A stretch of DNA of 64,000 nt, taken from a virus. This document shows, piece by piece, positions 11,320 through 53,786 of this stretch (within the stretch, counting starts at the first letter, position 1; every line of letters begins with the position of its first letter). The position numbers were made by a program, and so were the translations under genes. The notes beneath the pieces were generated by a model. It saw only the letters and a program-made list of their open reading frames with translations, was not told the DNA's origin and did not search any database. The stretch covers positions 11,167-75,166 of IMG/VR virus record IMGVR_UViG_3300033143_002274, one strand, 5' to 3'.

Positions 11320-11666
11320 ACTTTAAATTCCCACGATTTAAGTTTGGCCTTTAGCCTGTCTGCTGGATACGTCTGGATCACTCTGTCTAAATCATCAAAT
11401 GATAATTCTTCATCGACATCCAATCTGAGAATACGAGGGTACATGGCCTGATCCATTCGTATTCTTAATTCTGTATATTTTACGTAGTTGTTGATAAGTG
11501 AACGTTTACGTTCAACTTCTTCAGGGACATGTGATAGTTCTTTGGCAGCATCATAAGTTTGTGTGTCCATCATAACCAACACATCACTGTCATCAATAAC
11601 ATACAATGAATCTACTGATGGGGGTTCGAACATTTCTGCCCTGATTGAAAATAAATGTATGAACAT
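11316..11666 (-). CDS. Hypothetical protein
   Basis: Coupled ORF in early operon. Confidence 0.65.
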   Translation of the reverse strand: MFIHLFSIRAEMFEPPSVDSLYVIDDSDVLVMMDTQTYDAAKELSHVPEEVERKRSLINNYVKYTELRIRMDQAMYPRILRLDVDEELSFDDLDRVIQTYPADRLKAKLKSWEFKV

Positions 11667-11923
11667 TATAACTCCCTCATTACTACCATTTCTTGAACGA
11701 TATCTAATCCAGCATCAGTAAGATACCACCAGTAATACTTTTGTTTAATTCTGTCACCTTTGTGACTTGTAAGTATGATACCCTTACGTTCCAGTTCCTG
11801 AAATTTGTTTGGTCTTCCCATACACGAAAACTTATCATTACGATTACTCAGTCTTTTGTGTATTATGAATCTGTTAACCACATCATTTAACACAGTAATA
11901 TCATCGTCAGTGAAGTCTATCAT
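11666..11923 (-). CDS. Small winged-helix-like protein, paralog family B
   Basis: ELERKGII..YLTDAG; C-term VVMREL. Confidence 0.65.
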   Translation of the reverse strand: MIDFTDDDITVLNDVVNRFIIHKRLSNRNDKFSCMGRPNKFQELERKGIILTSHKGDRIKQKYYWWYLTDAGLDIVQEMVVMREL

Positions 11924-12117
11924 AGCAGAAAAAACTCAATTTTAGTAATGTTATTTCTGATGAATTCCAGATATGTTATCCGAAAATAATTAACTGGTTT
12001 ATTTCTGGTATTAGTAGGAGGTATAAATCCTGCTTTACGCGCAGCCCTATAACGGTCATTACCATTTTTTATAGGCATCAATCTGTTAAGTACTCGTATG
12101 TATTTTTCATCTGTCAT
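11920..12117 (-). CDS. Small protein, paralog family A
   Basis: MTDEKYIRVLNRLMP...YLEFIRNNITKIEFFLL. Confidence 0.75.
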   Translation of the reverse strand: MTDEKYIRVLNRLMPIKNGNDRYRAARKAGFIPPTNTRNKPVNYFRITYLEFIRNNITKIEFFLL

Positions 12118-12323
12118 AATATTTCAAACTCAATTCTGGCAACGTTGTATCTGATGAATTCCAGATATGCCACATGAAACTCGTGAGTAGCTGAATACTC
12201 AGTAACATACTTGTGTTGTGGGGGTACAAACCCAGCAGCCCTTACAATATCAAATCGTTCATTACCTCTTTCAAAATTCGGCAATAATTTCTTGATTGCT
12301 CGTTGATATTTTTCAAGTGTCAT
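12114..12323 (-). CDS. Small protein, paralog family A
   Basis: MTLEKYQRAIKKLLP...YLEFIRYNVARIEFEIL. Confidence 0.75.
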   Translation of the reverse strand: MTLEKYQRAIKKLLPNFERGNERFDIVRAAGFVPPQHKYVTEYSATHEFHVAYLEFIRYNVARIEFEIL

Positions 12324-12532
12324 AATAAATGGAACGCCACTAACTCTTTGTTGTATCTGAGGAATTCAATTGCAATAATTCTGGCATAATTTGACCTTGC
12401 TTTGCCACAACTTCTATCTGGAATGGATGAATCATTCATCCCCAATGTCTGAAGAAATTGATACATTTCCGTAAATTTTTGAGGCATTGGGTAATGTCTG
12501 TTAACCAACCGTTTGTATCTTGTAAGTGTCAT
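12320..12532 (-). CDS. Small protein, paralog family A
   Basis: MTLTRYKRLVNRHYP...IEFLRYNKELVAFHLL. Confidence 0.75.
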   Translation of the reverse strand: MTLTRYKRLVNRHYPMPQKFTEMYQFLQTLGMNDSSIPDRSCGKARSNYARIIAIEFLRYNKELVAFHLL

Positions 12533-12561
12533 AATCTACATTCCCAATTTCAATACGGGGA

Positions 12562-12590
12562 ATTATAGATTGAAAACAAAATTAAGTCAA
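12562..12590 (-). promoter_or_regulatory. sigma70-type early promoter
   Basis: TTGACT-17 bp-TATAAT heading the small-ORF operon. Confidence 0.85.
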
Positions 12591-12596
12591 GCGGTA

Positions 12597-12875
12597 TTAG
12601 CCTAGATATTCTCTGGTTGTTTCCCAGACTGCTTTAGATTTGAGTGATGCCTTGAGTGTTCCATGAACGTCCTTACCCAGATGGCGTATGATACCATTAA
12701 TCTGATCTTCCAGACGTTGTTTAGCCCAAGTTTTTTCTTCTGGTGTGCCGTACATCTGGTCAATACTCCAATACTGGTTAATCAATCTGATAACCTTCTG
12801 TAATGGGTTAGATCGTTCTTGTCTGTATGTTTTGCGCTCTTTCGAGTTAGCAGTGTTGAGTGTATGAGTTGTCAT
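12597..12875 (-). CDS. Hypothetical late protein
   Basis: ORF preceded by GATAAATA (12904-12911). Confidence 0.6.
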   Translation of the reverse strand: MTTHTLNTANSKERKTYRQERSNPLQKVIRLINQYWSIDQMYGTPEEKTWAKQRLEDQINGIIRHLGKDVHGTLKASLKSKAVWETTREYLG

Positions 12876-12928
12876 AATTATCTTCTTTTACTTTTGATAC
12901 TGGTATTTATCATGGCATAAATACGAGT

Positions 12929-13384
12929 ATGGAATTAGATATTGGACATTGGGAAACCGAGTTAAACGAATTTGACCCAGAAGATTTTTATGGGTTTGTG
13001 TACAGGATTATTAATGTTGTTACAAATCAAGAGTACATCGGAAAAAAACAATTGAAATCAAGGAACAGAGTCAAGGTTGCTGGACGCAAAAATCGTAAGA
13101 TTGTTTTCAGGAATACCAATTGGAAGAAGTACACATCAAGCAGTAAACGAATCAATGAAGAAATAGAAGAACATGGTAAGGAACGATTCAGATTTATTAT
13201 CATATCCTTACACGTCAGTAAGGGATCACTTGTCTACAAAGAAATCTTTCTTCAGATAACAGAGAATGTGATGCGTGAGAAGTTACCTGATGGTACACGT
13301 AAGTACTACAATGGAAACATTGGCAGCGTTAAATTTTTACCACCTGATGAAACATTACTCGAATCACAATTCAAAGTTTGTTAA
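12929..13384 (+). CDS. GIY-YIG family endonuclease
   Basis: YGFVYRIIN..YIGKK, WKKYTSSS, ERFRFIII. Confidence 0.8.
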   Translation: MELDIGHWETELNEFDPEDFYGFVYRIINVVTNQEYIGKKQLKSRNRVKVAGRKNRKIVFRNTNWKKYTSSSKRINEEIEEHGKERFRFIIISLHVSKGSLVYKEIFLQITENVMREKLPDGTRKYYNGNIGSVKFLPPDETLLESQFKVC

Positions 13385-13737
13385 AGTTTATCCATAAGTT
13401 GTTTCTGTTTATCAAAATTACGATATTTTATAAAAAAATATAGGGAAAACGCGCATAATATCAGTTGAACAATTGATGATATTGTATTACGTCCATCAAA
13501 AAACCATACAAAAGATATAAAAAACACATTGTACAGATTCAATATCCACATACTAAGATGAAATTTATTCGCAATGATGCTGCTGCCCCACTTGAATGAT
13601 CTTCTGGCACGTTTCATATGGAACTTATAATCATCAATATTATTAGGTTGCCATTCCGCATTCCTAATAGCATACTTAATGGGACTGTGCTTATCATACA
13701 GACGTTTGGCAAAGTTAAATGATATGAGTGAACCCAT
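13381..13737 (-). CDS. Membrane protein, 2 TM (start uncertain)
   Basis: Two hydrophobic segments; follows gp46. Confidence 0.5.
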   Translation of the reverse strand: MGSLISFNFAKRLYDKHSPIKYAIRNAEWQPNNIDDYKFHMKRARRSFKWGSSIIANKFHLSMWILNLYNVFFISFVWFFDGRNTISSIVQLILCAFSLYFFIKYRNFDKQKQLMDKL

Positions 13738-15973
13738 TTTCTTTTACGACCTTCATGATGTTGTCAACTTCTGTTACAAGATCATCCCTGTGTGATATCA
13801 GGAATACGTTTTCATTTTTGTGTTCTTTAAGTAATTTGAAGATTGCATGGAAACCACTTGCGTCAATTCCGTTATCAAGCAATTCATCAATACCCAAGAA
13901 GTTAAACTTAAACCCAGACACACTCATTAAGTCCCTGAATGCCATACTCACTGAGAAGTCTAACCGGCCTCGTTCGCCATTAGAAAGATTACCGTAGCTC
14001 ACTGAGTTCTGCATGTAATCTATATCAACTGTCAGATCATTATTGATAGTAACAATATGAGGCAATTCCAACTTCATTGTGTACTCGGCAATCTTCTGAT
14101 TGATATAAGGGATGTATTGGTCTAACAAATTCTTTCTGATGAATGATTTGTTATCAGTCAACATCTTAATCAATAATTTGTAATGTGATTCCTTTTCTTT
14201 CAAATTGAAAAGCACAGATTCATCATACTCAACCAACTCAGCTTTAGATCGTATCAACTGGTCAACATATGGGTTAGTTTCTTCATTGACTTTTATCAAT
14301 TGTTTACGAAGATTCTTCAGTGTGGAAATAATTTCAATACACTCAGCATCAGTATAAACTTCTTTGGGGAGTGAGGTTGACAAATTGCCAACTTCAACTT
14401 CATAAGATATTTTGCTTTCGTTTGCGTCTACTCCAATACTGGTAACGGAAGCATCATATTCTTCATTAAGACTTTCTTTTTCTTTGTTGGTATCAGCAGT
14501 TATTTTGAGAAGTTCATCTTCTAACTTACCTTCTAGTTCCCGTTGCTTATCGCCCTGTTCCCGTTGAGAGACAACCAATAACTTATTCAATTCAGAATGA
14601 ATGTTGTCTGTCAATTTAGTAAGTTCGGTAAGTTCATCTTCTGCTGTTGAAATTTCAGCTTTGAGATCGTGAACGCCAGCACCAACACTCTCGTTGTTTT
14701 TGCCTACTTCAATAGCATCTTCGTCAATGTGTTGTAGCTCACTATTTATTAAATCAATCTTATCATTATCAACATGCGTTTGTTTACAGTAAGGACATAT
14801 GCCATCCATAAGATTCTTAAGTTCACCACGTAATTTTTCTTCACTGTCAACCATAACTCTGAGTTGTTTGGCGTTATCAGTCAGGTAAGCAAGTGATTCT
14901 TTCAGGAGTGCTTTCTTTTCAATCAGACTTTTTTCAAGATTGCTTTTCTTGGTAATCAGATCTATTGATTTATCACTTGAATCAGATTCAAATTGACTAC
15001 GTTCTTTTTGATATGATAAGGTTAGGTTAGATGATTCTTCTTTATGGGCAGATTCAAATTCTGCAAAGATTTTAGCACCATCATTAGTAATCTTTTCCAA
15101 TAACTGTACATGGATAGATGTAGCTTTAGCCATATCTTGATCCTTAGTTTTATCTATGTCATCTATTGAAAGTTTGATTTTGGTGATAGCTTCTATCTGG
15201 TCACGGATTATCTGATTAGTCTTTTGTGTTGCCTCAACATCAATGAGTGACAACCCTTCAATCTCAGTCTCAGTATCCTTAACTTCATCCATATGACTTT
15301 GATTCCAGCTTTTAGACTGAGCATCCAATGATTCAATACGTGCAGTCACCTTATCAAAGTTACTGATGATATGACTTTTGTTCTGTTCTTCAAGTTTGAT
15401 TTCAACAATCACATCTTTGTTTTTTGATTTGAGTGTGTTGGCACGTTCTGAGAGTACATCTAACCCCACCATTTTTTCCATGAAGTCACGTTGTGGTGAT
15501 GGTTTCATCCCCATGAACGGAATTGTGGTGGTGTTTAACATAATGGTATTACAGAATGTATCAAAATTAATACCAATCAATTTCTCAATAGTTTCATCGA
15601 CTGTCGCAGCAGAATGCATGGTGTAAGGTTCACCATCTTTCAATACTTCACACACAGCAGGTTTACGCCCACGTCTGATGACGAATTCAATATCGTCCAC
15701 AACCATTTCAATTTCAACAACCATTTTCTTTTTGTTGATGACATTGACAAATGCATCTTGTCTGATGTTACTGATACCTTCATTGAACAGTACCCATGAT
15801 ATTGCTTGGAATATGGTAGACTTACCAACACCATTTCTGCTGTACCCTTCAGTACCCACATCTTTGTTGACACCAAGTATTAAGGTGGTGTCATGTTCAT
15901 TCAATTGAATGGTAATGGGTTTATGACCGAACGACAGAAAATTTTGAATGGTTATTTTTTTGAACTCAATCAT
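13715..15973 (-). CDS. gp46: Recombination endonuclease ATPase subunit (Rad50/SbcC-like)
   Basis: NFLSFG, NGVGKST Walker A, CPYC zinc hook, LSNGE signature, IDELLD, ISH. Confidence 0.95.
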   Translation of the reverse strand: MIEFKKITIQNFLSFGHKPITIQLNEHDTTLILGVNKDVGTEGYSRNGVGKSTIFQAISWVLFNEGISNIRQDAFVNVINKKKMVVEIEMVVDDIEFVIRRGRKPAVCEVLKDGEPYTMHSAATVDETIEKLIGINFDTFCNTIMLNTTTIPFMGMKPSPQRDFMEKMVGLDVLSERANTLKSKNKDVIVEIKLEEQNKSHIISNFDKVTARIESLDAQSKSWNQSHMDEVKDTETEIEGLSLIDVEATQKTNQIIRDQIEAITKIKLSIDDIDKTKDQDMAKATSIHVQLLEKITNDGAKIFAEFESAHKEESSNLTLSYQKERSQFESDSSDKSIDLITKKSNLEKSLIEKKALLKESLAYLTDNAKQLRVMVDSEEKLRGELKNLMDGICPYCKQTHVDNDKIDLINSELQHIDEDAIEVGKNNESVGAGVHDLKAEISTAEDELTELTKLTDNIHSELNKLLVVSQREQGDKQRELEGKLEDELLKITADTNKEKESLNEEYDASVTSIGVDANESKISYEVEVGNLSTSLPKEVYTDAECIEIISTLKNLRKQLIKVNEETNPYVDQLIRSKAELVEYDESVLFNLKEKESHYKLLIKMLTDNKSFIRKNLLDQYIPYINQKIAEYTMKLELPHIVTINNDLTVDIDYMQNSVSYGNLSNGERGRLDFSVSMAFRDLMSVSGFKFNFLGIDELLDNGIDASGFHAIFKLLKEHKNENVFLISHRDDLVTEVDNIMKVVKENGFTHII

Positions 15974-16133
15974 TGGTGAAATCTCTCCATATATCTTTGT
16001 ATGCTGGAATCACATGGTCAACAATATAATCTTTCAAGGAACAAGGGATAGCACATACCATTTCAACTACACCAAATATGATAGAAACCACAGTTGCCAC
16101 GATTAATCTGTATATCAATGTTATAAATTTCAT
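15966..16133 (-). CDS. Small membrane protein (55 aa), not in ORF track
   Basis: Manual translation MKFITLIYRLIVATVVSIIFGVVEMVCAIP...; fills the gp47-gp46 gap with overlaps at both ends. Confidence 0.6.
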   Translation of the reverse strand: MKFITLIYRLIVATVVSIIFGVVEMVCAIPCSLKDYIVDHVIPAYKDIWRDFTND

Positions 16134-17149
16134 TATAGTATCTCCTGATAAAGTTCTTCTAATAGATCTTTGTTAATAGATTCATTGTCGGTCATTCCCT
16201 TAATATGAGTGACCACTGCTTCATCAATAGACATAAGATGATTGATGTCTGTGACTTCAGCAATTACCTTATTGTCAGTTTTTGGTTTGTAAACCAATTT
16301 GTTGGTTCTGAAATCGTTGTCTTCCAGTATAGCAGATATCGTATCCAAAGTTTCACGTGATACGTCATCTTCCACTACGACTCTGACAGTGACATCATTC
16401 AAGTCGAATTGTGACCAATCTGTTTCAAGTATTTCTGCTGGGGTTAATGTCAGCACATGAACCTTTTCATAATTGACGAATTCATACTTACCAGTGTCTG
16501 TATCAAATACACAGAACCCTTTGTTGGGGTCGTTATCATCATTGAAGTCGAACGGCAGTGGATTACCAATGTACACAACATTATCAGTGAATTGTCTTCC
16601 ATGATAGTGACCAGAAAAAACAACATCTAAATGTTTGAGTTCCCTGTGAGACTGACCACTTTCCATAATGTAATGATCATTCAATTGAAAATTAGAGAAT
16701 TCAAAATGACCCATCATGTACTTAACTTTCTTTTCTTTGGATATTTTGATAATGTCATCGTATTCTTCTGGGGTGCATAACCATGACACCAGCATCACAT
16801 CACCAATAATTTTATAATAATCAACAACTTCTGTGACATATGGTTTGAACATATGTGTGGAGCAGACATCACGATTGTCTCTGAAATAGATATCATGATT
16901 ACCCTTCAACATATAAGTTGATTCGAAGGTGTTGGTAATCCTTGAAACAGTTTCATTTGCATATTCGATGGTATTAAGATCGAGTTTCGCCCTGTTGTGA
17001 AAGAAATCACCCAGATGAACGAATGTCGATATTTCATTTTCTTCAGCGTAATTACACATCCAATCAGTGAAATCCACTAAGTCTTGGTTGTGTATAACTG
17101 AATCACCAGCATTACCATGATGCCAATCAGTTGATAGGATCATCTTCAT
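16133..17149 (-). CDS. gp47: Recombination endonuclease nuclease subunit (Mre11/SbcD-like)
   Basis: TDWH, LGDFF, GNHD, GH, SGHYH metallophosphoesterase motifs. Confidence 0.95.
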   Translation of the reverse strand: MKMILSTDWHHGNAGDSVIHNQDLVDFTDWMCNYAEENEISTFVHLGDFFHNRAKLDLNTIEYANETVSRITNTFESTYMLKGNHDIYFRDNRDVCSTHMFKPYVTEVVDYYKIIGDVMLVSWLCTPEEYDDIIKISKEKKVKYMMGHFEFSNFQLNDHYIMESGQSHRELKHLDVVFSGHYHGRQFTDNVVYIGNPLPFDFNDDNDPNKGFCVFDTDTGKYEFVNYEKVHVLTLTPAEILETDWSQFDLNDVTVRVVVEDDVSRETLDTISAILEDNDFRTNKLVYKPKTDNKVIAEVTDINHLMSIDEAVVTHIKGMTDNESINKDLLEELYQEIL

Positions 17150-17192
17150 ATGTCATTCCTCTTAAATTTAACTTGTTACTATATCACATGTT

Positions 17193-17618
17193 TCAATCTA
17201 AATCATCATTATTGCTGTGTTTGTCTGTGAAAGTGTACGATGGATTGTACAAATTATCAATCAATAATCTGTCACGTATTTCTTGTTGACGTTTTTCTTT
17301 GTTCAAGATTTGGATGAATGAATTGTGAATGACTGAGGTATAGTAAGCAAATGGATTCTCACTTTTGGCAGAATCGAATTTATGTAATGCGCCAACACAG
17401 GCAACGATGCCACTGTTGATCATTTCACTCTTGTAACTATACCCAGAGAAATTAGGTTTGGATGCGTATCGTGTGGCAAGTATCATGAACATTCGTCCCA
17501 GTTTGTCTGATACTCTATTTTTTTTCTGGCAGTATATCAGTTCTGCAAACATTTCCTTGTTGCTCAAATATCCTTCTTCTTTCGTTTTTTTTGTTCTTCT
17601 TGTTTTCTTATCTGTCAT
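17193..17618 (-). CDS. gp55: Late transcription sigma factor
   Basis: YLSNKE, KPNFSGYSYK.EM, FD..KS.NPFAYYT, F...LNKEK. Confidence 0.9.
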   Translation of the reverse strand: MTDKKTRRTKKTKEEGYLSNKEMFAELIYCQKKNRVSDKLGRMFMILATRYASKPNFSGYSYKSEMINSGIVACVGALHKFDSAKSENPFAYYTSVIHNSFIQILNKEKRQQEIRDRLLIDNLYNPSYTFTDKHSNNDDLD

Positions 17619-32600: not shown

Positions 32601-32823
32601 AACTGATAATGGTTCTGGTGTTATATATGGTGGCACAGTTGATTATGCATCAGGAGTCATAGACATACCTATCTTACCAGACAAAGATTATTACATAAGA
32701 TATATGCAAAACGTTGACCAGAATTTTAACGCCAACGAGAAACAAGCGTTTACTTACTCATTACCAAAGACAAGTTATACAACAGTAACTGAATTATTAT
32801 CTACCATTGAGATTATAAGTTAA
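29692..32823 (+). CDS. gp6: Baseplate wedge subunit with inserted beta-rich domains
   Basis: ENFL.TA, GY.P, FGDG..G.KP, GG...E, RA...DY. Confidence 0.9.
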   Translation: MPFDYTDYSYDELVQEVTRLVSDKDEWKDAYQSSTGQVLIQVVAAITDQLHYMLERRSQENFLPTARLQTSVNAIVNMMGYRPQRKISSSGTLTLTLVDGNGVPVQNTDTIVIPKYSKLTFDDDVFVNVEDITLLPTQTYPYTFSIKEGTAIATTFDPSDITGTLYLSNYVEIDDYLSIENTSFYIFTATQTFIDVIERVGTDAPIDSLSFANATDKVYDVNNTNSGLRLLFGDGSSGEKPTGTLNVKYIESTGDAVAVVTTGNDFLFDDFPTELVDDSAATYKYTLSNTTNIDGGSNEETIESVKLNAPAYVRTANRAASKDDYVFWVNQSNIGSIVGANAYGEEEIGISVINANNVYIVYLTTNGLPMNSTDLALLDSYMDNYKIITAQTIYEAATVIPLQIKFKVKRDLTLSASNAEIYDVISNELINYFAFCDQSLDKDVNHSELIDHFHDFTIVKSGVNKLIADYINIDIKALYAFSVAWESVNDIDVTFTYGVDTDVYTILINDIPYSYTAQGGDTVTEVVGKMHQLLSLDLNVDSSVASNVITLSRNTSTTENLLIYSEDLTNAAWVTTGTITVTDDAVEAPNGLTAATTLNDTDAGVASFIKQTASMAQDSDIKSVSVYAKKDADTSRFPAIYFAHSGGTPVSSFVSVNTQTGATSVISGATPTIVTESFEDYWRISLSLQNNSTNDTIELGLYPAYSTTLGGAVDVTLTGSVDMFGTQAENKATVGKYIRTTTKPITLAYAENAIENRLIFNEELDNSAWVKTGTTITSNSLNDSDGYATVDTVTFAGSASAETVSQTVANVHSGETYTFKWRAQQGTLSTAAFGVYDVTNSAWIVDPATNTKTLTATLDSFETSFIVPDTCTSVRVHPVQNDNTAGTVYVGQSHLFLIGNSMDYIMSHEKQAFYFDDSFFVTNTGTTTVANALINIPIQLPLPVLDNSENDQLFYPTSIEIIESDGTIIATDNGSGVIYGGTVDYASGVIDIPILPDKDYYIRYMQNVDQNFNANEKQAFTYSLPKTSYTTVTELLSTIEIIS

Positions 32824-34328
32824 TGGCACTGAAGGATGATCTTAAGAAGTATCTCCCACAATCACAACAAGGTAAATTAAGTCTTGATGAATTTATGGAT
32901 GCTGTCGGTGAGTTACTTGATAACTTCAAAGACTCTATTGATGATTTTCAGACGTATAATGATTTTGAAAAAGTAAAAGAATCACAACTTGATAATCTGG
33001 CACAACAATTTGACATAGTTTATCCACGTAATATGTCTGATGAACGCAAACGTAATTACTTACGTGATGTTGTAACCCTTTACAGATCTAAAGGTACTAC
33101 CAAGTCAGTAGAACGTGTGTTCAAATTGATTGGTTGGCAAGTTTTAATTAAAGAATACTGGATTGTTAATCCTGATTGGTACACAAACCCAACTGACATA
33201 TACACTATCACAAATGAAAGTGGGGCAACTTTCGACTTGGGGTTATACGATACAATCAATGGTGATGATGAATTTTATCGAAATGATAAAATCTATATTG
33301 ACTTGGTTGATGTATCAGGAAACGTTTATCCAAAGAGACAAATATATGGTGAACCATATCAGGCAACAGCCGATGTTAATTTCATCAAAGTACCCTACAT
33401 CAAAATTATTGTTACGTCTGAAGATTTTGATTTGTTTACACAACCTTATACAGAAAATGGAAACACATATACTTACGACACCACAGAAGAATTCGAGATT
33501 CTTACTTATATTCGTAATTACTTCTTGGATGTTATTCGTCCTGCTAATGTGGCAATACTTGAAATTTCAACTCCATTCCAGTTATCTGATACCTTTGTGT
33601 TTTTTGTTCATAGTGATACAGGTGGTGCAAGTATAAGTGGTACACCAAATATATCTTTTAACAATGCTGACCCATATACAATAACTCGTGATGTCGGTGA
33701 TTTTGTTGCTGATGGATTCTTAATTGAATCTTACATTAATGTCACCGGATCAACTAACAACAATAACAGATTCAAGATAAGATTGGTTACTGCTACCCAA
33801 TTGACTTTGTACTATGAAACTCCATTAGTGACAGAATTGACAGTAAGTGGTGTGTCTATAATAGATGAAGGTCAAACTTTATCAACTATTAACAATGGGG
33901 CTACATATGATGGTACATCAATGTATGGTGCATACAATATAGATCGATACATTATGGGTGAGACAATGGGTAATTTCCAATATGGTACTTCCCAAATAGA
34001 TTATTATGGGGTGAAAGAAGACGCACCTGATCAAAATATTGCGACTAATTACGCCATTGGTACAGTTGGAAATCAAAAAAGAATATTGTTACGCAAGAAC
34101 TCTGATATTGTGGTTACAGTACCTGCTGATGCATCTATCACAATTTATGCAACAAGAGACTCACACGACACTGTGATAAACGGTTCTCCTGTATGGGCAG
34201 TAATTGCCATTGGAGTCACTAATGTCACTGCTCAAACTCATGTGATAACAGGGTACTTCTCGTTATTTGTTAAAATTGACACAGCATCTTCCACCGGAAC
34301 AATCGACACCACCGTTAATTTGTATTGA
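32823..34328 (+). CDS. Baseplate wedge protein (gp7/P2 gpI-like)
   Basis: LD.LA, LYRSKGT, IRPA motifs; follows gp6. Confidence 0.75.
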   Translation: MALKDDLKKYLPQSQQGKLSLDEFMDAVGELLDNFKDSIDDFQTYNDFEKVKESQLDNLAQQFDIVYPRNMSDERKRNYLRDVVTLYRSKGTTKSVERVFKLIGWQVLIKEYWIVNPDWYTNPTDIYTITNESGATFDLGLYDTINGDDEFYRNDKIYIDLVDVSGNVYPKRQIYGEPYQATADVNFIKVPYIKIIVTSEDFDLFTQPYTENGNTYTYDTTEEFEILTYIRNYFLDVIRPANVAILEISTPFQLSDTFVFFVHSDTGGASISGTPNISFNNADPYTITRDVGDFVADGFLIESYINVTGSTNNNNRFKIRLVTATQLTLYYETPLVTELTVSGVSIIDEGQTLSTINNGATYDGTSMYGAYNIDRYIMGETMGNFQYGTSQIDYYGVKEDAPDQNIATNYAIGTVGNQKRILLRKNSDIVVTVPADASITIYATRDSHDTVINGSPVWAVIAIGVTNVTAQTHVITGYFSLFVKIDTASSTGTIDTTVNLY

Positions 34329-34339
34329 TAAATACAACC

Positions 34340-35098
34340 ATGATTAATAAATTTATAGATAATATTCCAACCAATATACATGGTGAGTTCGAACTAAAAA
34401 TAATTGAAAAATCGACAGGTAATGTTATTGATTCATATGAAGACAAAAATATCATTGTACTTGATTCAAAATCAGCAATTATAAGTGCAATATCAACCAC
34501 TAACAACAATGGGGTTATTGAGGTATTGAAAGTGGGGAGTGATGTGGGTGATCCAGTATCAATGACCGGAACACCAAATCTTAATTTTGTTGATTCAAAT
34601 CCAGATACAATAGTTCGTACCACTGGTAGTTGGGTGACTGATGGTTTCATAGATGAAATGGTAATAACCATAACAAGTTCAACCAGTAATAATACAACGT
34701 ATACTATTGATTCTGTTACTGCAACCACACTCACCTTAATTAGTGGTGACACAATTGTAGTTGAAACTGGTAGTTCTGGTGTATCAGTTTCTGGCGCACC
34801 TTCCTTAGATAATCCAATACCACCATCAGACACATATAACGCAAGTACAATGTCTATTATATATACTGATCCCGACCCATTCACTGTTGGGTATTCTAAT
34901 TCTACATCAGTTACATTCAGTTCAACTATATCGGGTGTAGACGTAATGACTTATTACCCACTTGATATAACTAAAATAATCACAAGTGCTGCATTACATA
35001 CTGGTAATACTAATGTGTTTGCCTATAAACGATTCCCCCAAAAATCAATATCCAAATTAGTTGATATATTGGTTAACTGGACGATAAAATTTGATTGA
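34340..35098 (+). CDS. Baseplate/tail-fibre attachment protein; start refined to 34340
   Basis: HGEF.L, KNIIV, FAYKRFP...W.I.F. Confidence 0.6.
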   Translation: MINKFIDNIPTNIHGEFELKIIEKSTGNVIDSYEDKNIIVLDSKSAIISAISTTNNNGVIEVLKVGSDVGDPVSMTGTPNLNFVDSNPDTIVRTTGSWVTDGFIDEMVITITSSTSNNTTYTIDSVTATTLTLISGDTIVVETGSSGVSVSGAPSLDNPIPPSDTYNASTMSIIYTDPDPFTVGYSNSTSVTFSSTISGVDVMTYYPLDITKIITSAALHTGNTNVFAYKRFPQKSISKLVDILVNWTIKFD

Positions 35099-42249: not shown

Positions 42250-43745
42250 AATATTACTGGCAAGGGATCAAACTCACTGTCATCAAGTTCCCCTATTAAC
42301 TCAACACTGTTCAATGTGTCGTAAACATCTGCTTCCCATTGAGCAAGTTCCTCAATCATATTACAAAACAGTACAACACCCATTACCAAGTCATCTGTCT
42401 TACCAGTTTCAGCAGCGAACGATGCACCTTTCTTAATAAAGAATTTCAATTCACTTATCAGAAACTTACTGTTAATTTTCATACGATCAGATTCAATTAA
42501 GTCCTTCATACGAGTACATCCCTTCATCTTGGTTTTGTTGGTTGTAAGGATACCATCATGCTTCCCTATGCTGACCATTTCAGCCTTATCCAGAATCTTA
42601 TCAGTTGTATTACGAAGTAATTGTGTTACCCCCATACCGATACTGTTTGCTTCCACGGTGTAATAGATTTGACCTGCACCCTTATCATATAAATTTTTGA
42701 GTATCTTCAGAAAGACTTTGGTGAAATCTGTGATGTTCAATAAGTTGTTTCTGAACTCAGCAAGTTGTTCAAATGTTTCTAAATCGAATACTTGTACGGT
42801 GGTATAATCTTGTCCTGTACCTGTACCAACATCAACACTTACGCCTAAGTTTCTTTTGGATACTGATTTGAAATATCTTAAATCACCAAACGTAGTCATG
42901 ACATCTTTAGGTACTAATGCTTCGAGTATAGGCGAATAAATTAATGTTCCTGATGATGACAAGAATGCATTCTCATACTCTTGTGCATACTCAGTTGCTG
43001 ACATATCCTTCAGCATCATTTCTTTAAAATTTTCGTCCCTATCAGGTACTTGACTGTTGACTACTTCAATCGGGTTATAATCGTTTGTTCCTTGTAATGC
43101 TCTGAACCATAACTCAGCAAACTTTCCTTCTGAACCATTAGGTGTGCTGGTTGCAATCATTCTGCTGTTGGGTGCTGACAATGATGGCAGAATTGCTTTC
43201 CACCATTCTTCCATGATGTTAGGTTTGATGAACGCCATTTCATCCACATAGAGTATTGATAATGACATACCACGATATGTACTTTCTGTGGTTGTCTGTG
43301 ACATAATTTTAGAGTTATTACTGAATACAATATCGAATACGTTATAACTTGTTACGGCAGGTTTGATCCATGTAGGTAAATTTTCATATGCATATCTGAA
43401 TCTGGATATAATTTCTTTTGCACCACTACCTTTGTGGGCTGTTACCCCAATGATAACATCAGGAAAGAAAATTGCCTGATGTAAAAGGTATGCAACGATT
43501 GTTGTGGTCTTACCGGATTGTCTTACCTGACATAAGATAGTCTTATTGTATTCTTGTAAATCTTCAATAACTTGTAATTGGTAATCATATAGATCGAAAA
43601 GAACTGCACCACGTGTGGGATGCTGTATGTACACATAATTTCTGATGAAGTATTCAATGTCACCAATACATTTTGCCATTTCAATTGCTTGTTTTTTGGT
43701 TATGTTATTATCATCTGTTAATAACTTGACCCCAAGTTTAGGCAT
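42246..43745 (-). CDS. gp17: Terminase large subunit
   Basis: LYDYQ, RQSGKT, YVDEMAF, TSTPNG, QEY, D...G.G.DY, DDLVM. Confidence 0.96.
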   Translation of the reverse strand: MPKLGVKLLTDDNNITKKQAIEMAKCIGDIEYFIRNYVYIQHPTRGAVLFDLYDYQLQVIEDLQEYNKTILCQVRQSGKTTTIVAYLLHQAIFFPDVIIGVTAHKGSGAKEIISRFRYAYENLPTWIKPAVTSYNVFDIVFSNNSKIMSQTTTESTYRGMSLSILYVDEMAFIKPNIMEEWWKAILPSLSAPNSRMIATSTPNGSEGKFAELWFRALQGTNDYNPIEVVNSQVPDRDENFKEMMLKDMSATEYAQEYENAFLSSSGTLIYSPILEALVPKDVMTTFGDLRYFKSVSKRNLGVSVDVGTGTGQDYTTVQVFDLETFEQLAEFRNNLLNITDFTKVFLKILKNLYDKGAGQIYYTVEANSIGMGVTQLLRNTTDKILDKAEMVSIGKHDGILTTNKTKMKGCTRMKDLIESDRMKINSKFLISELKFFIKKGASFAAETGKTDDLVMGVVLFCNMIEELAQWEADVYDTLNSVELIGELDDSEFDPLPVIF

Positions 43746-44392
43746 TACTCATACCCTTCTCTAATTTCATCTGCGAATCCATACTTGACTGCTTCTTCTG
43801 CGGTCAAATAGAATTCTTCTTTTTCACTCATGTTCTTCACTAACCATTTGGTTATGTGTTTGATTGTTTTACCTTTCCAGAAACTTTGTTTACGTAGATG
43901 ACTGACGTACACAGCAATCATTTGCTCAGATGCTTTTTCGTTTTGCTCATATTCAGTTCTGAATTGTTTGATTGTTCCACCTGTATGAATACTCCCTTCA
44001 TGAATCATATAGGTACTGTGAGGCATCATGATGCGTTTGTCTGCGGCAAGGTATATCAAAGATGACATACTTCGCGCATGGGTGTAGTTTATGATGGTTA
44101 CGGTGTTGTTACATGCTTTGATTGCATCATAGATTGCCATACCTTCAGTCCATTCACCACCACATGTTTTCATATGAATAGTAATGGGTTCATCAGAATT
44201 ATTAGACAGGATGTTCAGGTTTTTGATGAATCTGTTTGCCATAAGAAATTCGACACCGGGTTCACCAGTTTCCTCGACACCAATACCAGAAACATAAGTT
44301 TCTTCGCCTATCAGATAAATTTCATTATTGACAACATCTATTCCACTGATGTGGATGTCGTGGATTACATCATTACTTACTATTTTTGTCAT
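43745..44392 (-). CDS. clpP: ClpP-like serine protease
   Basis: GG....AIYD, ARSMSSLI, YMIHE, YLTAEEAVKYGFADEI. Confidence 0.85.
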   Translation of the reverse strand: MTKIVSNDVIHDIHISGIDVVNNEIYLIGEETYVSGIGVEETGEPGVEFLMANRFIKNLNILSNNSDEPITIHMKTCGGEWTEGMAIYDAIKACNNTVTIINYTHARSMSSLIYLAADKRIMMPHSTYMIHEGSIHTGGTIKQFRTEYEQNEKASEQMIAVYVSHLRKQSFWKGKTIKHITKWLVKNMSEKEEFYLTAEEAVKYGFADEIREGYE

Positions 44393-48778: not shown

Positions 48779-48805
48779 GTTGTTGTTTTAAAAGGAGATA
48801 TAAAT

Positions 48806-48834
48806 TTGACAGCAGGAAGTTTTCAATCTATAAT
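48806..48834 (+). promoter_or_regulatory. Perfect sigma70 early promoter
   Basis: TTGACA-17 bp-TATAAT. Confidence 0.9.
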
Positions 48835-48859
48835 AGTTCCATCAACTGAGGGAAAGATT

Positions 48860-49222
48860 ATGAAAACTCGTACAGCACATGATACAGCTTGGGATACACT
48901 GTCTGACTTACACAAAGATGTTTATGGATTCCGTCCACGTGGTGTATACGATTTCGACTCAATGTCTACTGATGATATTGAAGACGAGATTGAACGTCTT
49001 ATTCCTGCTTTGAATGAAGTTGTCGCAGCAGAACAAGCACGTGAACGAGCAGCGATTGTAGCATTCGAACAGGTTATCACTGAAACCATTGCTAATGGTG
49101 CAGGTACTCGTGCCAATGCAATCAACTGGTTGCGTGATGCAGAAGAAGACGATTTTATGACTGATGGTTACTTCGGTTTTCTTTACGGTCTTCCTCACAA
49201 CTACTTTGAGAAAGCAGCATAA
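48860..49222 (+). CDS. Conserved early phage protein; start refined to 48860
   Basis: SDLHKDVYGFRPRG motif; GAGGG RBS. Confidence 0.75.
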   Translation: MKTRTAHDTAWDTLSDLHKDVYGFRPRGVYDFDSMSTDDIEDEIERLIPALNEVVAAEQARERAAIVAFEQVITETIANGAGTRANAINWLRDAEEDDFMTDGYFGFLYGLPHNYFEKAA

Positions 49223-49587
49223 TGGAGAAGGTAACTAATTACGGATACTCTAAGAGGGCGGGTAAACCCCCTAAGATGTATAAGATCATTATAAACAATA
49301 GTGCCAATAGGATTGATGGGTTTGATATGGTTCGTACAAAAACTGGAAAAATTGTACGTCTGGGTAATAACATGGAGGTAAGTTTGCTTAATGAATACAG
49401 CTTCTATTATGCTGCAACACATGGTGAGAATGGATCGCCTATATTTATTGTTAATGATGGCAGTCTATATCTGAGTTGTTATTGGGGTGACATAATGGAA
49501 CACAAAGAATTATTTGCAGATCTTAGCAAGAAAGTTTACAGAAAAGAGTTAACAGCATTTGACTTACTAGGATTCTTAGTGTTATAG
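49222..49587 (+). CDS. Hypothetical protein
   Basis: Coupled ORF; ends GFLVL. Confidence 0.6.
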   Translation: MEKVTNYGYSKRAGKPPKMYKIIINNSANRIDGFDMVRTKTGKIVRLGNNMEVSLLNEYSFYYAATHGENGSPIFIVNDGSLYLSCYWGDIMEHKELFADLSKKVYRKELTAFDLLGFLVL

Positions 49588-49721
49588 TGTATTCCTCCCA
49601 AGTCGTGAACCCTTTAGTTCACGCAACATTTAGCCCATTTGGGCAGAAGGTAACATACTTGTTGTGTTACCTTTTTTTTTGTTTTATACTCCACGAAAAT
49701 AAGAAGAAGGAGAAAAAAATA

Positions 49722-50750
49722 ATGAGTGCAAATTTAGACACAACTAAGGTTATGAAAAACCTCAAGAAAGCCAAAATATCGTTGGGTATATCTGACCCCG
49801 ATAAATGGTTGACCAGTGGTAATTATGGGTTAAATTTTAAGTTAACAGGAGACTTCAACAGAGCATACCCCAATAAACGTTCTGTTATGTTTTGGGGGGA
49901 GTCTGGTACTGGTAAGACATTTCTTGCATGTTTGGCAGCAGTAGAAGCACAAAAAAATGGATACCATGTTGTGTACATTGATACTGAGAATGGTATTGAT
50001 ACTGGTTACTTGAGTAAGATTGGTATGGATATGTCAACAGGTGCGTTCAGTGTGATACGAATTAACACATTAAAAGAATGTATGGCAACTATGTTTGAAT
50101 GGTTTGATGGATATGATCCTGATGTTAAATTATGTTTTGTAATTGATTCATTGACAAATATGAAAACAGAATCAGCGAATGAAAATGCTACTAAGGGTAA
50201 ACTGTCAAATGATTTTGGTTTATTTGCTAAGAAGGTAAAAGAACTTGTAAGTCATCTTACTACCAAAATTGGAGACAGAGATAATTTCTTGTTTATGGTA
50301 AGTCACGCATATGCCAACCAAGATGTATTAAACGGAAAAGGTACACACTTACCGAGTGGTGGCGGTGGAATGATTTATGCTCCGTCAATGAGTATTTTTG
50401 TGTCTAAACTTAAATTAAAGGACACAACAACTAAACAAGTGGTCGGTGTCAAGATAACGGCTGAAGCAAGTAAGACACGCTTTACTCAACTTGGTGGCAG
50501 AATCAGACTTGAAGTCCCATACTCAACTGGGCTTGATCCTATTGATGGCCTATTGGATTTAGCAGTTGAAGCTGATCTTGTTGATAACACAACTAAAGGT
50601 TGGTATAGCTTTGGTGATCCTGAAACGGGTGAACTCATAAAATTCCGTAAGAAAGATTTTGGCGATCATTATAAGAAACTTTTTGATTTCGATGAAGCTA
50701 CTGAAATCAAAGAAGGTGCTGATTACGAAGATAAGGATGGAGCATCATAA
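49722..50750 (+). CDS. uvsX: RecA-like recombinase; start refined to 49722
   Basis: GESGTGKT, YIDTE, VIDSL, SGG, KTRF; AAGGAG RBS. Confidence 0.93.
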   Translation: MSANLDTTKVMKNLKKAKISLGISDPDKWLTSGNYGLNFKLTGDFNRAYPNKRSVMFWGESGTGKTFLACLAAVEAQKNGYHVVYIDTENGIDTGYLSKIGMDMSTGAFSVIRINTLKECMATMFEWFDGYDPDVKLCFVIDSLTNMKTESANENATKGKLSNDFGLFAKKVKELVSHLTTKIGDRDNFLFMVSHAYANQDVLNGKGTHLPSGGGGMIYAPSMSIFVSKLKLKDTTTKQVVGVKITAEASKTRFTQLGGRIRLEVPYSTGLDPIDGLLDLAVEADLVDNTTKGWYSFGDPETGELIKFRKKDFGDHYKKLFDFDEATEIKEGADYEDKDGAS

Positions 50751-50751
50751 T

Positions 50752-50781
50752 AAAAAAGGGATACCGAAGTATCCCTTTTTT
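50752..50781. terminator. Bidirectional intrinsic terminator (cUUCGg loop on minus strand)
   Basis: AAAAAAGGGATAC-CGAA-GTATCCCTTTTTT between convergent genes. Confidence 0.92.
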
Positions 50782-50802
50782 CATTTCATAAACTAAGTAA
50801 GA

Positions 50803-51453
50803 TTACTTAGCGTTTAAGCGAGTATTAGTGTCATTAACTGCTGCAATGATTTCAGCTTCAAGATCTAAATCACCAGTAGTGTAATCTACTTTTGCAAGAG
50901 CAGCAGAATCATATGATTCTTCAGCAGGTTCATATGCAGATAAAGCATTTGCGCCATTGTCTAAAGTACGTACTGCAAGTTGTCCAAAAAGACCACCATC
51001 AACAGGTGAAAGTAAACCAGCATAACCAGACATACCCACGAACAGATCAACATCAGTGATTACAACGTAAGAAGCAAGACCAGTTGTAGGACTTGTTACT
51101 ACTAAGTTACCACCTGCAATTGCAAGTTCAGTGCCGGGCAAATCAGCATTGATAAGACCAAGAACAGTAGTGAAAGTATCAGCAGTAGTTACGTCAACTG
51201 AGATAGGGTAAGCAGTGCCATCAAGATTAATTGAAGCAGTATAAGTAGCAGTTACTAAACCAGCATCATTACCACCAACAGCAGACGCATCAAAGTCTAC
51301 AGTTTGAACACCAGCAGCAGAACCACCAGCAGTTTCGTCTGTGTCCATACCTGCTACATCAGCAGTATTTACGACAGCAACACGAATGAAAGATTGTACC
51401 GTACCACGAGTTTTAGTAGCGTAAACTGTTTCGCCATTTATAGTTGTAGACAT
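50803..51453 (-). CDS. Virion structural/decoration protein
   Basis: TATAAATA 51494-51501, AGGAG RBS, Ala/Thr/Gly-rich, own terminator. Confidence 0.65.
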   Translation of the reverse strand: MSTTINGETVYATKTRGTVQSFIRVAVVNTADVAGMDTDETAGGSAAGVQTVDFDASAVGGNDAGLVTATYTASINLDGTAYPISVDVTTADTFTTVLGLINADLPGTELAIAGGNLVVTSPTTGLASYVVITDVDLFVGMSGYAGLLSPVDGGLFGQLAVRTLDNGANALSAYEPAEESYDSAALAKVDYTTGDLDLEAEIIAAVNDTNTRLNAK

Positions 51454-51514
51454 TATTATTTCTCCTATGTTTGAATAATTTTGTTTGTAAAAGTATTTAT
51501 ATAAATAGTTATTT

Positions 51515-51739
51515 ATGATAGAAGATAAAATGACACCCTTAAACTTTCAACCACATAGCAGACCTGTGGTGAAAATGAGTATTACCGGAAGGTATCTTGG
51601 GGTGTATGACTCAGTGTCAGAAGCTGCCAGAGAGTCTAATCTGTCAAGGACAGCAATCACTAATGCTTTGAATAAGAAAGCAGGGGTGCAGCGTTCAGGA
51701 GGTTACGTTTGGAAGTATGTATCGGACTTAGCTAGATAA
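51515..51739 (+). CDS. NUMOD1-type HTH DNA-binding protein
   Basis: RPVV....G.....YDSVSEAAR......I..A......SGGYVWKY. Confidence 0.8.
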   Translation: MIEDKMTPLNFQPHSRPVVKMSITGRYLGVYDSVSEAARESNLSRTAITNALNKKAGVQRSGGYVWKYVSDLAR

Positions 51740-52003
51740 AGATACGGTATAGAGTACAGCACCACGATGTGATATATCGAATTTTCCGGTCAGACTACTG
51801 TAGTTGTCATTGATCCATGCAACGATAGAATCCCATCTGCCACTTTTGATGACTTGTGCATTTTGGATAACGTCTACCATAGTGTCATCTGAAATGTTAA
51901 CTCCCACAGGGTTAAATCGCATTTCATCAAATGCTTCAAAATCTGCATTGACGAAATCAAAATCTTCTTCATCTACTGCGGTAAATATATCTTTACTTAT
52001 CAT
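51728..52003 (-). CDS. Hypothetical acidic late protein
   Basis: CATAAATA and GGAG upstream. Confidence 0.6.
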   Translation of the reverse strand: MISKDIFTAVDEEDFDFVNADFEAFDEMRFNPVGVNISDDTMVDVIQNAQVIKSGRWDSIVAWINDNYSSLTGKFDISHRGAVLYTVSLSS

Positions 52004-52048
52004 TTATAAAACTCCATACTATCAATGTATTTATGAAGGATAACCAAA

Positions 52049-52495
52049 ATGACAGACATACAAGCAGAACTAGATAAATTTCAAATAAGATTCGATGAAC
52101 TTGAGAAAACTGCTGAAGCAGACTTAGCACTTCAGGGTAAGAGATTGGAACAGGCACAGACACCACACCCAACATTACAACACAATTGGGGTAAGTTGGG
52201 AGCAGGATTATCTTGGTTATATGAAGAAGCAAAGAATGATGCAGACACTGCATTTGGGCAAGCATACACCAATGCCCAGAATGACAGTTACAAAACACGT
52301 TCTTCAACTGATGCTAAATGGATAGCAGAAAAGGATGACAGGTATAACAAAGCAGTCAGAATCAAGAACAAGGTTTATAGATTGAAAAAAGAAGTGGATA
52401 ATGTCACTGATGTTATTGAAAGTCGTAAGTACATCTTGAAGGACTTGACTAACAGCATAATCCACTCAGTGAATAATTCTAAACTATACATATGA
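52049..52495 (+). CDS. uvsY: Recombination mediator
   Basis: Helical ~150 aa, SSTDAKW.AE.D pattern; between uvsX and uvsW. Confidence 0.7.
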   Translation: MTDIQAELDKFQIRFDELEKTAEADLALQGKRLEQAQTPHPTLQHNWGKLGAGLSWLYEEAKNDADTAFGQAYTNAQNDSYKTRSSTDAKWIAEKDDRYNKAVRIKNKVYRLKKEVDNVTDVIESRKYILKDLTNSIIHSVNNSKLYI

Positions 52496-52722
52496 TGCCG
52501 TTGAAACACATGCGTAACCGTGAAGATTTCTTCAAGGCGTTATTGCACTATACTGTGGTCGAATATGACAATACTTCTGATGTTGATAATTACATCCTTT
52601 GGGGGATTGGTTCAGAATTAATCAACGTAACAAATGATAAGCACACATCAGATTACCACCATCATGCTAATCTTGAGTTGACTGACAGTGGCAAAGCATA
52701 CGTGGCTTTTTTAACATTATGA
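52492..52722 (+). CDS. Small protein, paralog family B
   Basis: LELTDSGKAYVAFLTL. Confidence 0.7.
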   Translation: MMPLKHMRNREDFFKALLHYTVVEYDNTSDVDNYILWGIGSELINVTNDKHTSDYHHHANLELTDSGKAYVAFLTL

Positions 52723-52976
52723 AACTGTTTCCTCATAGACATATGAAACTGTTCCCTCATATTGATGGCAGGGTGATTGAACGTTGGAAGGTCATATACC
52801 AACACCAAAGTGACCCACATGAAATTTTACATATTGATGATTCTTACTTTTTCCTGTACTCAAATGCGATAACGTATGGATTTTTAAAATTAGATTGCAC
52901 ACATAACAATCAAGAAGATTATCAGTTTTCGTTAACTGAAGATGGGGAAGCGTACATTACCTTTATGTTATTATGA
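52719..52976 (+). CDS. Small protein, paralog family B
   Basis: AITYGFL..SLTEDGEAYITFMLL. Confidence 0.7.
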   Translation: MKLFPHRHMKLFPHIDGRVIERWKVIYQHQSDPHEILHIDDSYFFLYSNAITYGFLKLDCTHNNQEDYQFSLTEDGEAYITFMLL

Positions 52977-53269
52977 TTACATTTATAGAAAATCCGATGT
53001 TTCGCCGGTATGCTGTCCATACAGATGTCCCCTTTCATACTAGGATATGGAACGAATATGTGATATTGGGGATACCCCAAATTAGAATTTTATGTACTGA
53101 TAAATCAAAGTATAAAGACGCTATTGATGAAAGTATCAAACGTGGTGAAGTGATTATAACACATAAACGCCCATTGTATCCAAGTGTCAACAGTGACTCA
53201 CATACCTTCATATATGATTTGATTGTATCCGATATGATGATAAACAAAATAGTATTTGATAGGTTATGA
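52973..53269 (+). CDS. Small protein, paralog family B
   Basis: QIRILC.D..IDESIKRG..TFIYDL..IVFDRL. Confidence 0.7.
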   Translation: MITFIENPMFRRYAVHTDVPFHTRIWNEYVILGIPQIRILCTDKSKYKDAIDESIKRGEVIITHKRPLYPSVNSDSHTFIYDLIVSDMMINKIVFDRL

Positions 53270-53541
53270 AAGATTTTAGTAAAGGTGAGTTTGTTTCCTA
53301 CCAACTTAAAGACGAGTTTAAAAGGCAGCTAAGAAAACATAATGGTTATCAGATACGTGAACTGTGTGTTGATATCTCACCGAAGAAAGAGACTATAGAT
53401 AACGCAGTTGCCTGTGGATTTCTTACTATTACCAATGTTACAATAGCACAAGTACAACTTACAGATCATAACAATACATTTTTGTATGATTTGATGTTGA
53501 CAGAAGAAGGGAAAACTTACATAGAGTTTATGTTATTATGA
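53266..53541 (+). CDS. Small protein, paralog family B
   Basis: QIRELC.D..AVACGFL..YDLMLTEEGKTYIEFMLL. Confidence 0.7.
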   Translation: MKDFSKGEFVSYQLKDEFKRQLRKHNGYQIRELCVDISPKKETIDNAVACGFLTITNVTIAQVQLTDHNNTFLYDLMLTEEGKTYIEFMLL

Positions 53542-53786
53542 CACCAATGGATTACCCAACCACATCAACTACATACATGAAACATTTGTTTGGGGAAAAA
53601 TCAACACGTGAACTTGATTGTGATGACAATTCGCCATATGCGAGATTTATACAACAGGCGAATGCTGATGGATATCTCACATACAAAATTTTAGAATCTT
53701 TACCACAGAGCAAGACAACCAGACGAGCATATGAATTACAATTAACGACATTAGGAGAAATGTACGTTAAATACCTATTACTATAA
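53538..53786 (+). CDS. Small protein, paralog family B
   Basis: RELDCD..ANADGYL..YELQLTTLGEMYVKYLLL. Confidence 0.7.
   Translation: MTPMDYPTTSTTYMKHLFGEKSTRELDCDDNSPYARFIQQANADGYLTYKILESLPQSKTTRRAYELQLTTLGEMYVKYLLL

Follow-up and report, generated by a model that had tools for sequence, protein, structure and literature searches.

Several described systems use the extreme C-terminus of a protein as a signal or a contact. The tail of HslU on HslV and the HbYX and GQYL ends on 20S proteasomes act as plugs made of hydrophobic residues and the terminal carboxylate, while partners of ClpP dock via internal IGF loops and not via C-termini. Non-polar C-terminal residues also destabilise proteins, as in the ssrA tag, and degrons of this kind lack structure and have small residues (L-A-A) at their end. 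Here we describe a C-terminal module that recurs in small proteins encoded by 64,000 nucleotides of viral DNA (the window), which are bases 11167-75166 of a 75,166-base virus contig (IMG/VR record IMGVR_UViG_3300033143_002274) and belong to a distant T4-type myovirus. In T4 itself, gp33, gp43 and gp55 carry the sliding-clamp-binding motif (S/T)LDFL(L/F/Y) at or near the C-terminus (PMC2988020, PMC7892883), attached via a flexible, divergent linker (PMC7892883, PMC2988020); gp43 ends KASLDFLFG and gp33 ends TLDFLL-COOH.

The module was the exact C-terminus in every homologue found. Judged from conservation and codon usage, it is kept by selection at the protein level in about 18-20 small early-gene proteins, and these appear to span at least two unrelated predicted folds plus several groups that can be aligned to neither. 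An earlier note on this DNA had counted about 17 carriers of a common hydrophobic tail; one of its members (11666, see below) is not detectably part of the family to which it was assigned. Genes are named here by their lower window coordinate.

A ten-residue module at the C-terminus

When aligned from the C-terminus, the tails of two groups of proteins, families A and B, fell in the same register, [G/N]-x-x-Φ-Φ-x-[F/Y/W/M]-x-Φ-L-COOH. The shared tail of the earlier note is real, with an extent of ten residues rather than five. In family B (30 sequences), Gly was found at -10 in 29 sequences, Tyr (25) or Phe (3) at -7, I, V, L or M at -6, Phe (23) or Tyr (7) at -4, Leu (18) or Met (6) at -2 and Leu (30) at -1, with variable residues at -5 and -3. 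The 15 family-A sequences had Asn (11) at -10, Leu (8) or Met (3) at -7, Ile (7), Leu (3) or Tyr (2) at -6, Phe (10), Met (3) or Trp (2) at -4, Leu (7) or Met (4) at -2 and Leu (15) at -1. Terminal Leu was present in 100% of both families, and position -5 was acidic (E/D) in 17/30 family-B and 5/15 family-A sequences. Pairwise identity was 47% in the tail versus 20% in the rest of the protein for family B, and 33% versus 18% for family A; the tail is the best-conserved part of these proteins, about twice the rest. A family-B hidden Markov model (HMM) searched against 1.84 billion representative proteins, with no limit on length, recovered 26 proteins of 76-98 residues. All 26 ended exactly on the motif and there were no longer forms.

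Open reading frames (ORFs) were called over the whole contig by one simple caller, and the controls (50 kb of T4 and 84 kb of Alishewanella phage Slickus01) were called identically. The ending [FWYM]xxL-COOH was present in 25/131 contig ORFs compared to 1.43 expected from internal 4-mers (binomial 1.5e-23) and to 5/216 ORFs in the two controls (Fisher 1.2e-7), a comparison with other phage ORFs that the earlier note had proposed as a check; the genes and endings listed there were all present when plausible genes were translated. Because paralogues are not independent, each phmmer-linked paralogue group was also counted once, which gave 14/120 (p = 7.6e-11). The same excess was seen in a related contig, L001 (7/26). 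Leu of any kind was the last residue of 40/131 ORFs. Without the roughly 22 family members this dropped to about 16%, the level of the controls (12-17%), so the excess belongs to the families and is not a genome-wide habit.

The likeness between the two families was also apparent from a position-specific scoring matrix (PSSM) covering the nine C-terminal residues of 22 family-B proteins, all taken from other samples, with the window sequences left out. Five C-termini of the contig from outside family B scored higher than 99.9% of the 21,958 internal windows (0.13 expected); these were 11920, 12320, 9818, 12114 and an upstream ORF that ends KYEFNML. In both families the hydrophobic moment, taken over the seven to nine C-terminal residues, had its minimum at 100 degrees (0.19-0.24) and its peak at 140-150 degrees (0.44-0.46), which suggests that the tail, as an alpha helix, would be hydrophobic on all sides.

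Carriers of the module

Family B is represented in the window by a tandem array of five genes; a sixth protein, 11666, had been grouped with them.

52492-52722 (+), family B member 1, 76 residues, ends GKAYVAFLTL; HMM E 1e-21
52719-52976 (+), family B member 2, 85 residues, ends GEAYITFMLL
52973-53269 (+), family B member 3, 98 residues, degenerate tail INKIVFDRL, without G at -10
53266-53541 (+), family B member 4, 91 residues, ends GKTYIEFMLL; AlphaFold target
53538-53786 (+), family B member 5, 82 residues, ends GEMYVKYLLL
11666-11923 (-), separate small winged-helix-looking protein, 85 residues, ends VVMREL; negative with the family-B HMM

The pattern G(F/Y)L...LTxxG, first pointed out in the array, was upheld, its T and G being at least 90% conserved over 30 sequences. 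The assignment of 11666 was not, as the 30-sequence family-B HMM did not recover it. Rather, 11666 belongs to a well-conserved separate family, winged-helix-looking by sequence, with a longer terminal helix of 13 residues that ends M-x-x-L. Inside the family-B array of L001 lies a 62-residue gene (L001 9420-9608, +) that ends GDIIIEYIE, which looks like a family-B-type ending without the terminal Leu residues.

Of the remaining carriers, those on the minus strand form an array, 12532 to 9516, behind a strong sigma-70-type promoter that marks them as early-type genes; bona fide helix-turn-helix (HTH) regulators are interleaved with them.

12562-12590 (-), sigma-70-type promoter, TTGACT-17-TATAAT, 11/12; precedes the 12532-to-9516 array
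12320-12532 (-), paralogue of 11920, 70 residues, ends N-KELVAFHLL; first gene after the early promoter
12114-12323 (-), paralogue of 11920, 69 residues, ends N-VARIEFEIL
11920-12117 (-), short tail-bearing protein, 65 residues, ends N-ITKIEFFLL; AlphaFold target
10509-10838 (-), tail-bearing protein, about 99-109 residues, ends QELIQMRML
9818-10138 (-), tail-bearing protein, paralogue of 10509, 106 residues, ends NELMAFKML; unlinked to the A core once tail-trimmed
9516-9821 (-), family A core member, 101 residues, ends N-IDLIHFRLL
49222-49587 (+), unrelated carrier upstream of a UvsX-like gene, 121 residues, ends DLLGFLVL; L001 orthologue ends AIAFLDL
55729-56106 (+), family A core member, 125 residues, ends N-KHKHEFWFL; tail-trimmed E 0.001
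58099-58467 (+), probable tail-bearing protein, ends IQQILLMSEL; start codon uncertain, family link weak
60114-60371 (+), family A core member, 85 residues, ends N-KHMYEWWQL
60356-60583 (+), family A core member, 75 residues, ends N-QHMYEWWML
61879-62178 (+), family A core member, 99 residues, ends KHMLVFWLL; directly after the gp44-like clamp loader

The coherence of family A was examined with HMMs from which the last ten residues had been trimmed and one group at a time left out. The top non-training matches were 9516, 61879, 60114 and 55729, with weak E values (0.001 to 0.6), while the 9818/10509 pair, the 11920/12114/12320 trio and 58099 were not recovered by these HMMs. Since only the core A groups are linked in this way, the tail and the short helix that precedes it are the main feature uniting several of the groups. 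"Family A" thus appears to be one family in part only, and there may be more than two independent tail carriers. No outside homologues of 49222 were found in a word-indexed search, and no family in Pfam or PHROG passed the threshold for any tail-bearing protein. Upstream of the window, a 53-residue ORF (contig bases 4210-4371, -) has a family-A-like N-terminus (...LEDNYP) and no tail; it recurred among the weak, non-significant matches of the tail-trimmed HMMs (E 0.17-1.1) and may be a truncated family-A member.

One explanation for the common ending is that all carriers are members of one fast-evolving superfamily, or that the module was spread by recombination between neighbouring genes, so that the tail is simply inherited. 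The tandem arrangement of the genes and the weak links among core A groups after trimming fit such a history. In addition, orthologues of 9516 from other samples were identical over ~20 residues at either end but unrelated in between, suggestive of mosaicism, and the last 19 nt of 9516 and 61879 are the same. Against common descent, A and B are predicted to fold differently, and hhalign detected no homology between the two families. The codons of the tail mostly differ between members, which speaks against recent gene conversion, and inheritance alone does not account for the tail being the most conserved part of the protein. We regard this explanation as improbable.

Predicted structures of the carriers

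The AlphaFold model of the family-B protein 53266-53541 (30-sequence alignment) had a mean pLDDT (predicted local distance difference test) of 89.5 and a pTM (predicted template modelling score) of 0.75. Its topology is a1-b1-a2-b2-b3-a3 (α/β), with the tail as a helix at residues 80-90 (block pLDDT about 88-93). In comparison to the winged-helix topology, a1-b1-a2-a3-b2-b3, just one helix precedes the hairpin. The best Foldseek match was Alba (E 0.01, TM 0.52). With VIA the model gave Z 6.3-6.8 to a mix of MarR, SarA, RosR, an ORC winged-helix domain, F93, Alba and a small NMR structure; by fold, these were 6.3-6.6 for MarR, SarA and RosR and 6.7 for Alba, values that are middling by the tool's own calibration. 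PDB profile searches returned nothing meaningful and the ESM Atlas gave no usable lead. A winged-helix-like fold for family B, as suggested in the earlier note, is plausible but not established: matches to MarR, SarA and RosR were obtained, but they were middling and the top Foldseek match was Alba.

The short family-A protein 11920-12117 was modelled as four helices (pLDDT 84.4, pTM 0.69), the tail being the helix at 57-64. Neither Foldseek nor VIA found a significant match to this model in the PDB (best Z 4.7), and several HTH domains were among the low-Z matches. The claim that the same tail sits on differing predicted folds was supported: the AlphaFold topologies differ, hhalign of A against B was negative, and the PSSM made solely with family-B tails of other samples picked out family-A ends. 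In both models the module is predicted to form a capped two-turn helix seated directly on the domain.

In a second explanation, the tail has no shared partner and serves as a structural or dimerisation helix. It would close the core, and the domain's own homodimer, in each of a set of small DNA-binding-type domains, and the likeness between families would result from packing rules that they have in common or from shuffling of the module long ago. Consistent with this, AlphaFold renders the tail as an integral, high-confidence helix, and the VIA alignments of family B to winged-helix proteins covered model residues 1-91, tail helix included (Z 5.5-6.6), extending through the helix after the wing in MarR, SarA, RosR and STIV F93. 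The conserved parts of the short family-A model are helices 1, 3 and 4, and the presence of true HTH regulators in the same array also fits with DNA-binding-type domains. A dimerisation helix leaves unexplained why the ten-residue register, the invariant terminal Leu and the aromatic residue at -4 are common to unrelated folds, and why no homologue has even one additional C-terminal residue. Moreover, the all-round hydrophobic side chains exceed what a single small domain could bury. We consider a dimerisation or purely structural helix possible, and nearly as likely as the shared contact discussed below.

Constraints at the DNA level

A third explanation holds that the tail is a by-product of nucleotide sequence, namely of the ATGA overlap, of a Shine-Dalgarno sequence for the next gene embedded in the tail, or of a promoter-like DNA motif. 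Genes with an ATGA overlap ended in Leu in 15/23 cases. The codon of the terminal Leu was TTA in 24/40, compared to 35% internally, a bias that is explained in part by the overlap, which requires a codon ending in A. Strings resembling GGAG or GGTGG were present in some tails. As the earlier note had argued, coupling by ATGA does not force Leu, since the other overlapped genes ended in K (3), V (3), S and I. Conversely, the tail was kept without an overlap in 53538 (CTA TAA, with the next ATG 12 nt downstream), in L001 4332 and 5885, and in the orthologue of 61879 on another related contig (L006 375). Paralogues and orthologues used different synonymous codons for F, the hydrophobic residues and the Leu before the last, and constraints near the stop codon are unable to fix residues -4, -6, -7 and -10. 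Gene overlap and ribosome-binding-site constraints, the latter named in the earlier note as what might undo its proposal, thus do not produce the module.

Two genes that the earlier note used as uncoupled controls, 9516 and 61879-62178, were less informative than supposed. Both keep the tail, but they have the identical 19-nt 3' end, GGTTGTTATAGATTGATAA (window 9503-9521 and 62168-62186), which belongs to a recurrent DNA motif and makes them imperfect controls. The motif, TTATAGATTGA[AT]AA, has 13 copies in the window when up to 2 mismatches are allowed, where 2.2 are expected and 0/100 shuffles reached 13; copies include 9503-9521, 62168-62186, 12563-12576 and 48820-48833. Its reverse complement, TT[TA]TCAATCTATAA(T), corresponds to the spacer and -10 of clear sigma-70-type promoters at 12562-12590 (-) and about 48805-48835 (+). 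The L006 orthologue of 61879 retained the ending LAFWLL with other codons and without the DNA motif. Overall, an origin of the tail in nucleotide constraints is largely refuted by these comparisons and, in our estimate, very improbable.

Downstream of 9516, about 420 bp (9093-9515) contain no listed ORF of at least 40 residues and several copies of AAGATTACT, in the part of the window with the lowest GC content (0.32 for 8001-10000). Gene 61879-62178 (+) converges with 62173-62493 (-), and the six bases that they share (62173-62178, TTATAG/CTATAA) give both a Leu-stop end.

The phage and its relatives

Among the annotated genes are those for a T4-like portal, a gp21-type prohead protease, gp46/gp47 (SbcCD), UvsX, a gp44 clamp loader, a gp55 late sigma factor, a large terminase, PhoH, a UvsW-like helicase, two ClpP-like proteins and one GroES-like protein. 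Slickus01 is the nearest cultured phage, yet the tail sheaths of the two share only 37% identity. Close relatives are the IMG/VR contigs L001 and L002 (83% identity in the helicase). No match to the region was found among phages by megablast, and no relative turned up when 50,697 phage records were searched by tblastn with a family-B member. When the clamp loader, SbcC and P0013 were used as queries, the only further related loci were L006 (1.1 kb) and L007 (7.5 kb), the latter ending before it reaches the tail-gene arrays.

A 173-residue ORF at 56106-56627 (+) matches PF07733 (DNA polymerase III alpha NTPase domain) over positions 7-95 only (2.5e-13), so it may represent a gene fragment or part of a split polymerase. 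The 459-residue protein 58468-59847 (+) lies among replication genes and is a paralogue of the tail-fibre-region proteins 32823-34328 and 34325-35098 (E 1e-12 to 1e-14). A 170-residue protein at 8306-8818 (-) weakly resembles Rep proteins of the HUH type (PF23343 6.5e-7, with further matches to Phage_GPA and Rep_1), unusual for a T4-like genome. ORFs resembling SegE or other GIY-YIG-type homing endonucleases were present at 12929-13384 (+), at L007 6292-7356 and 1244-1945, and at L001 894-1544; their differing positions in related contigs point to mobile insertions adjoining the arrays.

The two ClpP-like proteins, 43745-44392 (-) and 57104-57856 (+), were identified by Pfam CLP_protease (1e-28) and phrog_1827 (5e-46). 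Their nearest cultured relatives are about 28-32% identical, and the GroES-like co-chaperonin is encoded at 56860-57138 (+). They raise the question of a degradation tag, whereby the non-polar C-terminus would lead to timed removal of the carriers by host ClpXP or ClpAP or by the phage ClpP-like proteins. A free, strongly hydrophobic C-terminus confined to small proteins of early-type arrays would suit such a role. Degrons, however, are normally exposed and unstructured, and the tail is a predicted packed helix of high pLDDT that ends in large residues (F/W and L-L, [FYW]-x-[LM]-L) and not in the small A-A of ssrA; there is also no Clp ATPase on the 75-kb contig. A degradation tag therefore seems an unlikely role for the tail.

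Proposed docking on a common partner

The reading that we favour, tentatively and at somewhat less than an even chance, is that the tail provides a contact between molecules that all carriers share, most likely by docking on one hub, for which a clamp-type cleft is the leading candidate. A helix that is hydrophobic all round cannot be fully buried by a domain of 65-90 residues, so part of its surface would be exposed, and this exposed face, the flush C-terminus and the sharing across folds together argue for contact between molecules. In the monomer, one face of the helix and the free carboxylate would be exposed and would serve as a common protein-protein contact. In its most likely form, the tails would plug differing proteins into one shared hydrophobic cleft, either of the sliding-clamp type, which leads by likeness of motif, or alternatively of the two phage ClpP-like proteins or a host hub. 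The variable bodies would bring different activities to the hub, possibly including DNA binding; with HTH regulators interleaved in the array and HTH domains among the low-Z matches, the bodies may be small DNA-binding domains.

The comparison with the T4 clamp, which had been stated beforehand in the earlier note, was quantified by PSSM. With a nine-column family-B matrix, gp43 ranked 1st of 91 C-termini of the T4 early region. With six columns, gp33 ranked 2nd of 176, behind T4 protein Ac, which is annotated as a predicted membrane protein. These ranks lend what looks like modest support (roughly p 0.01-0.03). By hhalign, family A showed no homology to T4 gp33. The likeness to clamp tails is measurable in this way, but the linker and the epitope of the phage's own gp55 were not matched. 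The bacterial beta-clamp pentapeptide (QL[SD]LF), the PDZ class II ligand and HbYX were also considered, and in a comparison by eye only each fitted more poorly than the T4 motif.

Several observations weigh against docking on a clamp or any common hub. The motif carries little information, which makes its likeness to clamp tails weak evidence. In the models of both families the tail has a pLDDT of about 82-93 and its helix begins 1-2 residues past the preceding element, with no linker. The phage's gp55 homologue (17193-17618, -) ends NPSYTFTDKHSNNDDLD, a T4-like epitope that differs from the tail; its orthologue in L007 (2278-2712) ends NPSLNFQEKHSSGQNYDDLD, and the gp55 epitope reads NPS(Y/L)xF followed by an acidic end, ...DDLD. 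The 75-kb contig has no clamp, gp33 or polymerase gene. Finally, small winged-helix and HTH proteins commonly dimerise via a C-terminal helix, which could give a similar pattern without a shared partner. A clamp is nevertheless to be expected in the phage, given the gp44-like clamp loader. The retention of a T4-like gp55 epitope suggests clamp-activated late transcription in this clade.

Taken further, the docking hypothesis describes a virus-encoded network built on a short motif, in which some twenty early proteins of several unrelated small folds, with bodies that change fast, would use one C-terminal plug on a single hub. A sliding clamp acting as a tool-belt, a ring of phage ClpP or a host hub could play this part, and the whole would be a kind of modular adaptor system for which phages offer no described precedent. 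We think this wider picture doubtful. In a narrow search of the literature, no report of a comparable tail network in a phage came up. Should the docking plug be correct, about twenty proteins of unknown function from one clade would become testable together. It would also mean that in phages, as in eukaryotic cells, a short terminal motif can connect many fast-evolving proteins to a hub. Should the tail prove to be only a dimerisation helix, two new small-protein families will have been defined, with a warning that packing rules alone can yield a shared terminal pattern.

Comparison with known systems

The C-terminal dimerisation helices of the small winged-helix proteins STIV F93 (2co5), MarR (helix 5) and RosR resemble the family-B tail in that they stand right after the wing hairpin. 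They differ from it in being longer and not flush with the C-terminus, and they have no sequence motif in common with unrelated folds of the same genome. The ssrA tag and the ClpXP C-motif-1, like the tail, can be added to proteins of unrelated kinds and leave a hydrophobic C-terminus free, yet these degrons are unstructured with an L-A-A end whereas the tail is a predicted packed helix that ends F/W-x-L-L. As for tails that dock on protease rings, the phage encodes two ClpP-like proteins and the tail has a hydrophobic free C-terminus, but the penultimate Tyr of HbYX is not found in it.

The T4 clamp motifs are borne on linkers, in contrast to the tail, a predicted helix that follows on the fold without a break. 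They are carried by three proteins of known function compared to about 20 ORFans here, and the tail has one extra terminal Leu and is acidic at -5 in about half of the sequences. Both T4 and this phage have short hydrophobic or acidic endings common to otherwise unrelated proteins, and the registers match, with V/I-E-F-L/M-L in the tail standing against L-D-F-L-L in T4.

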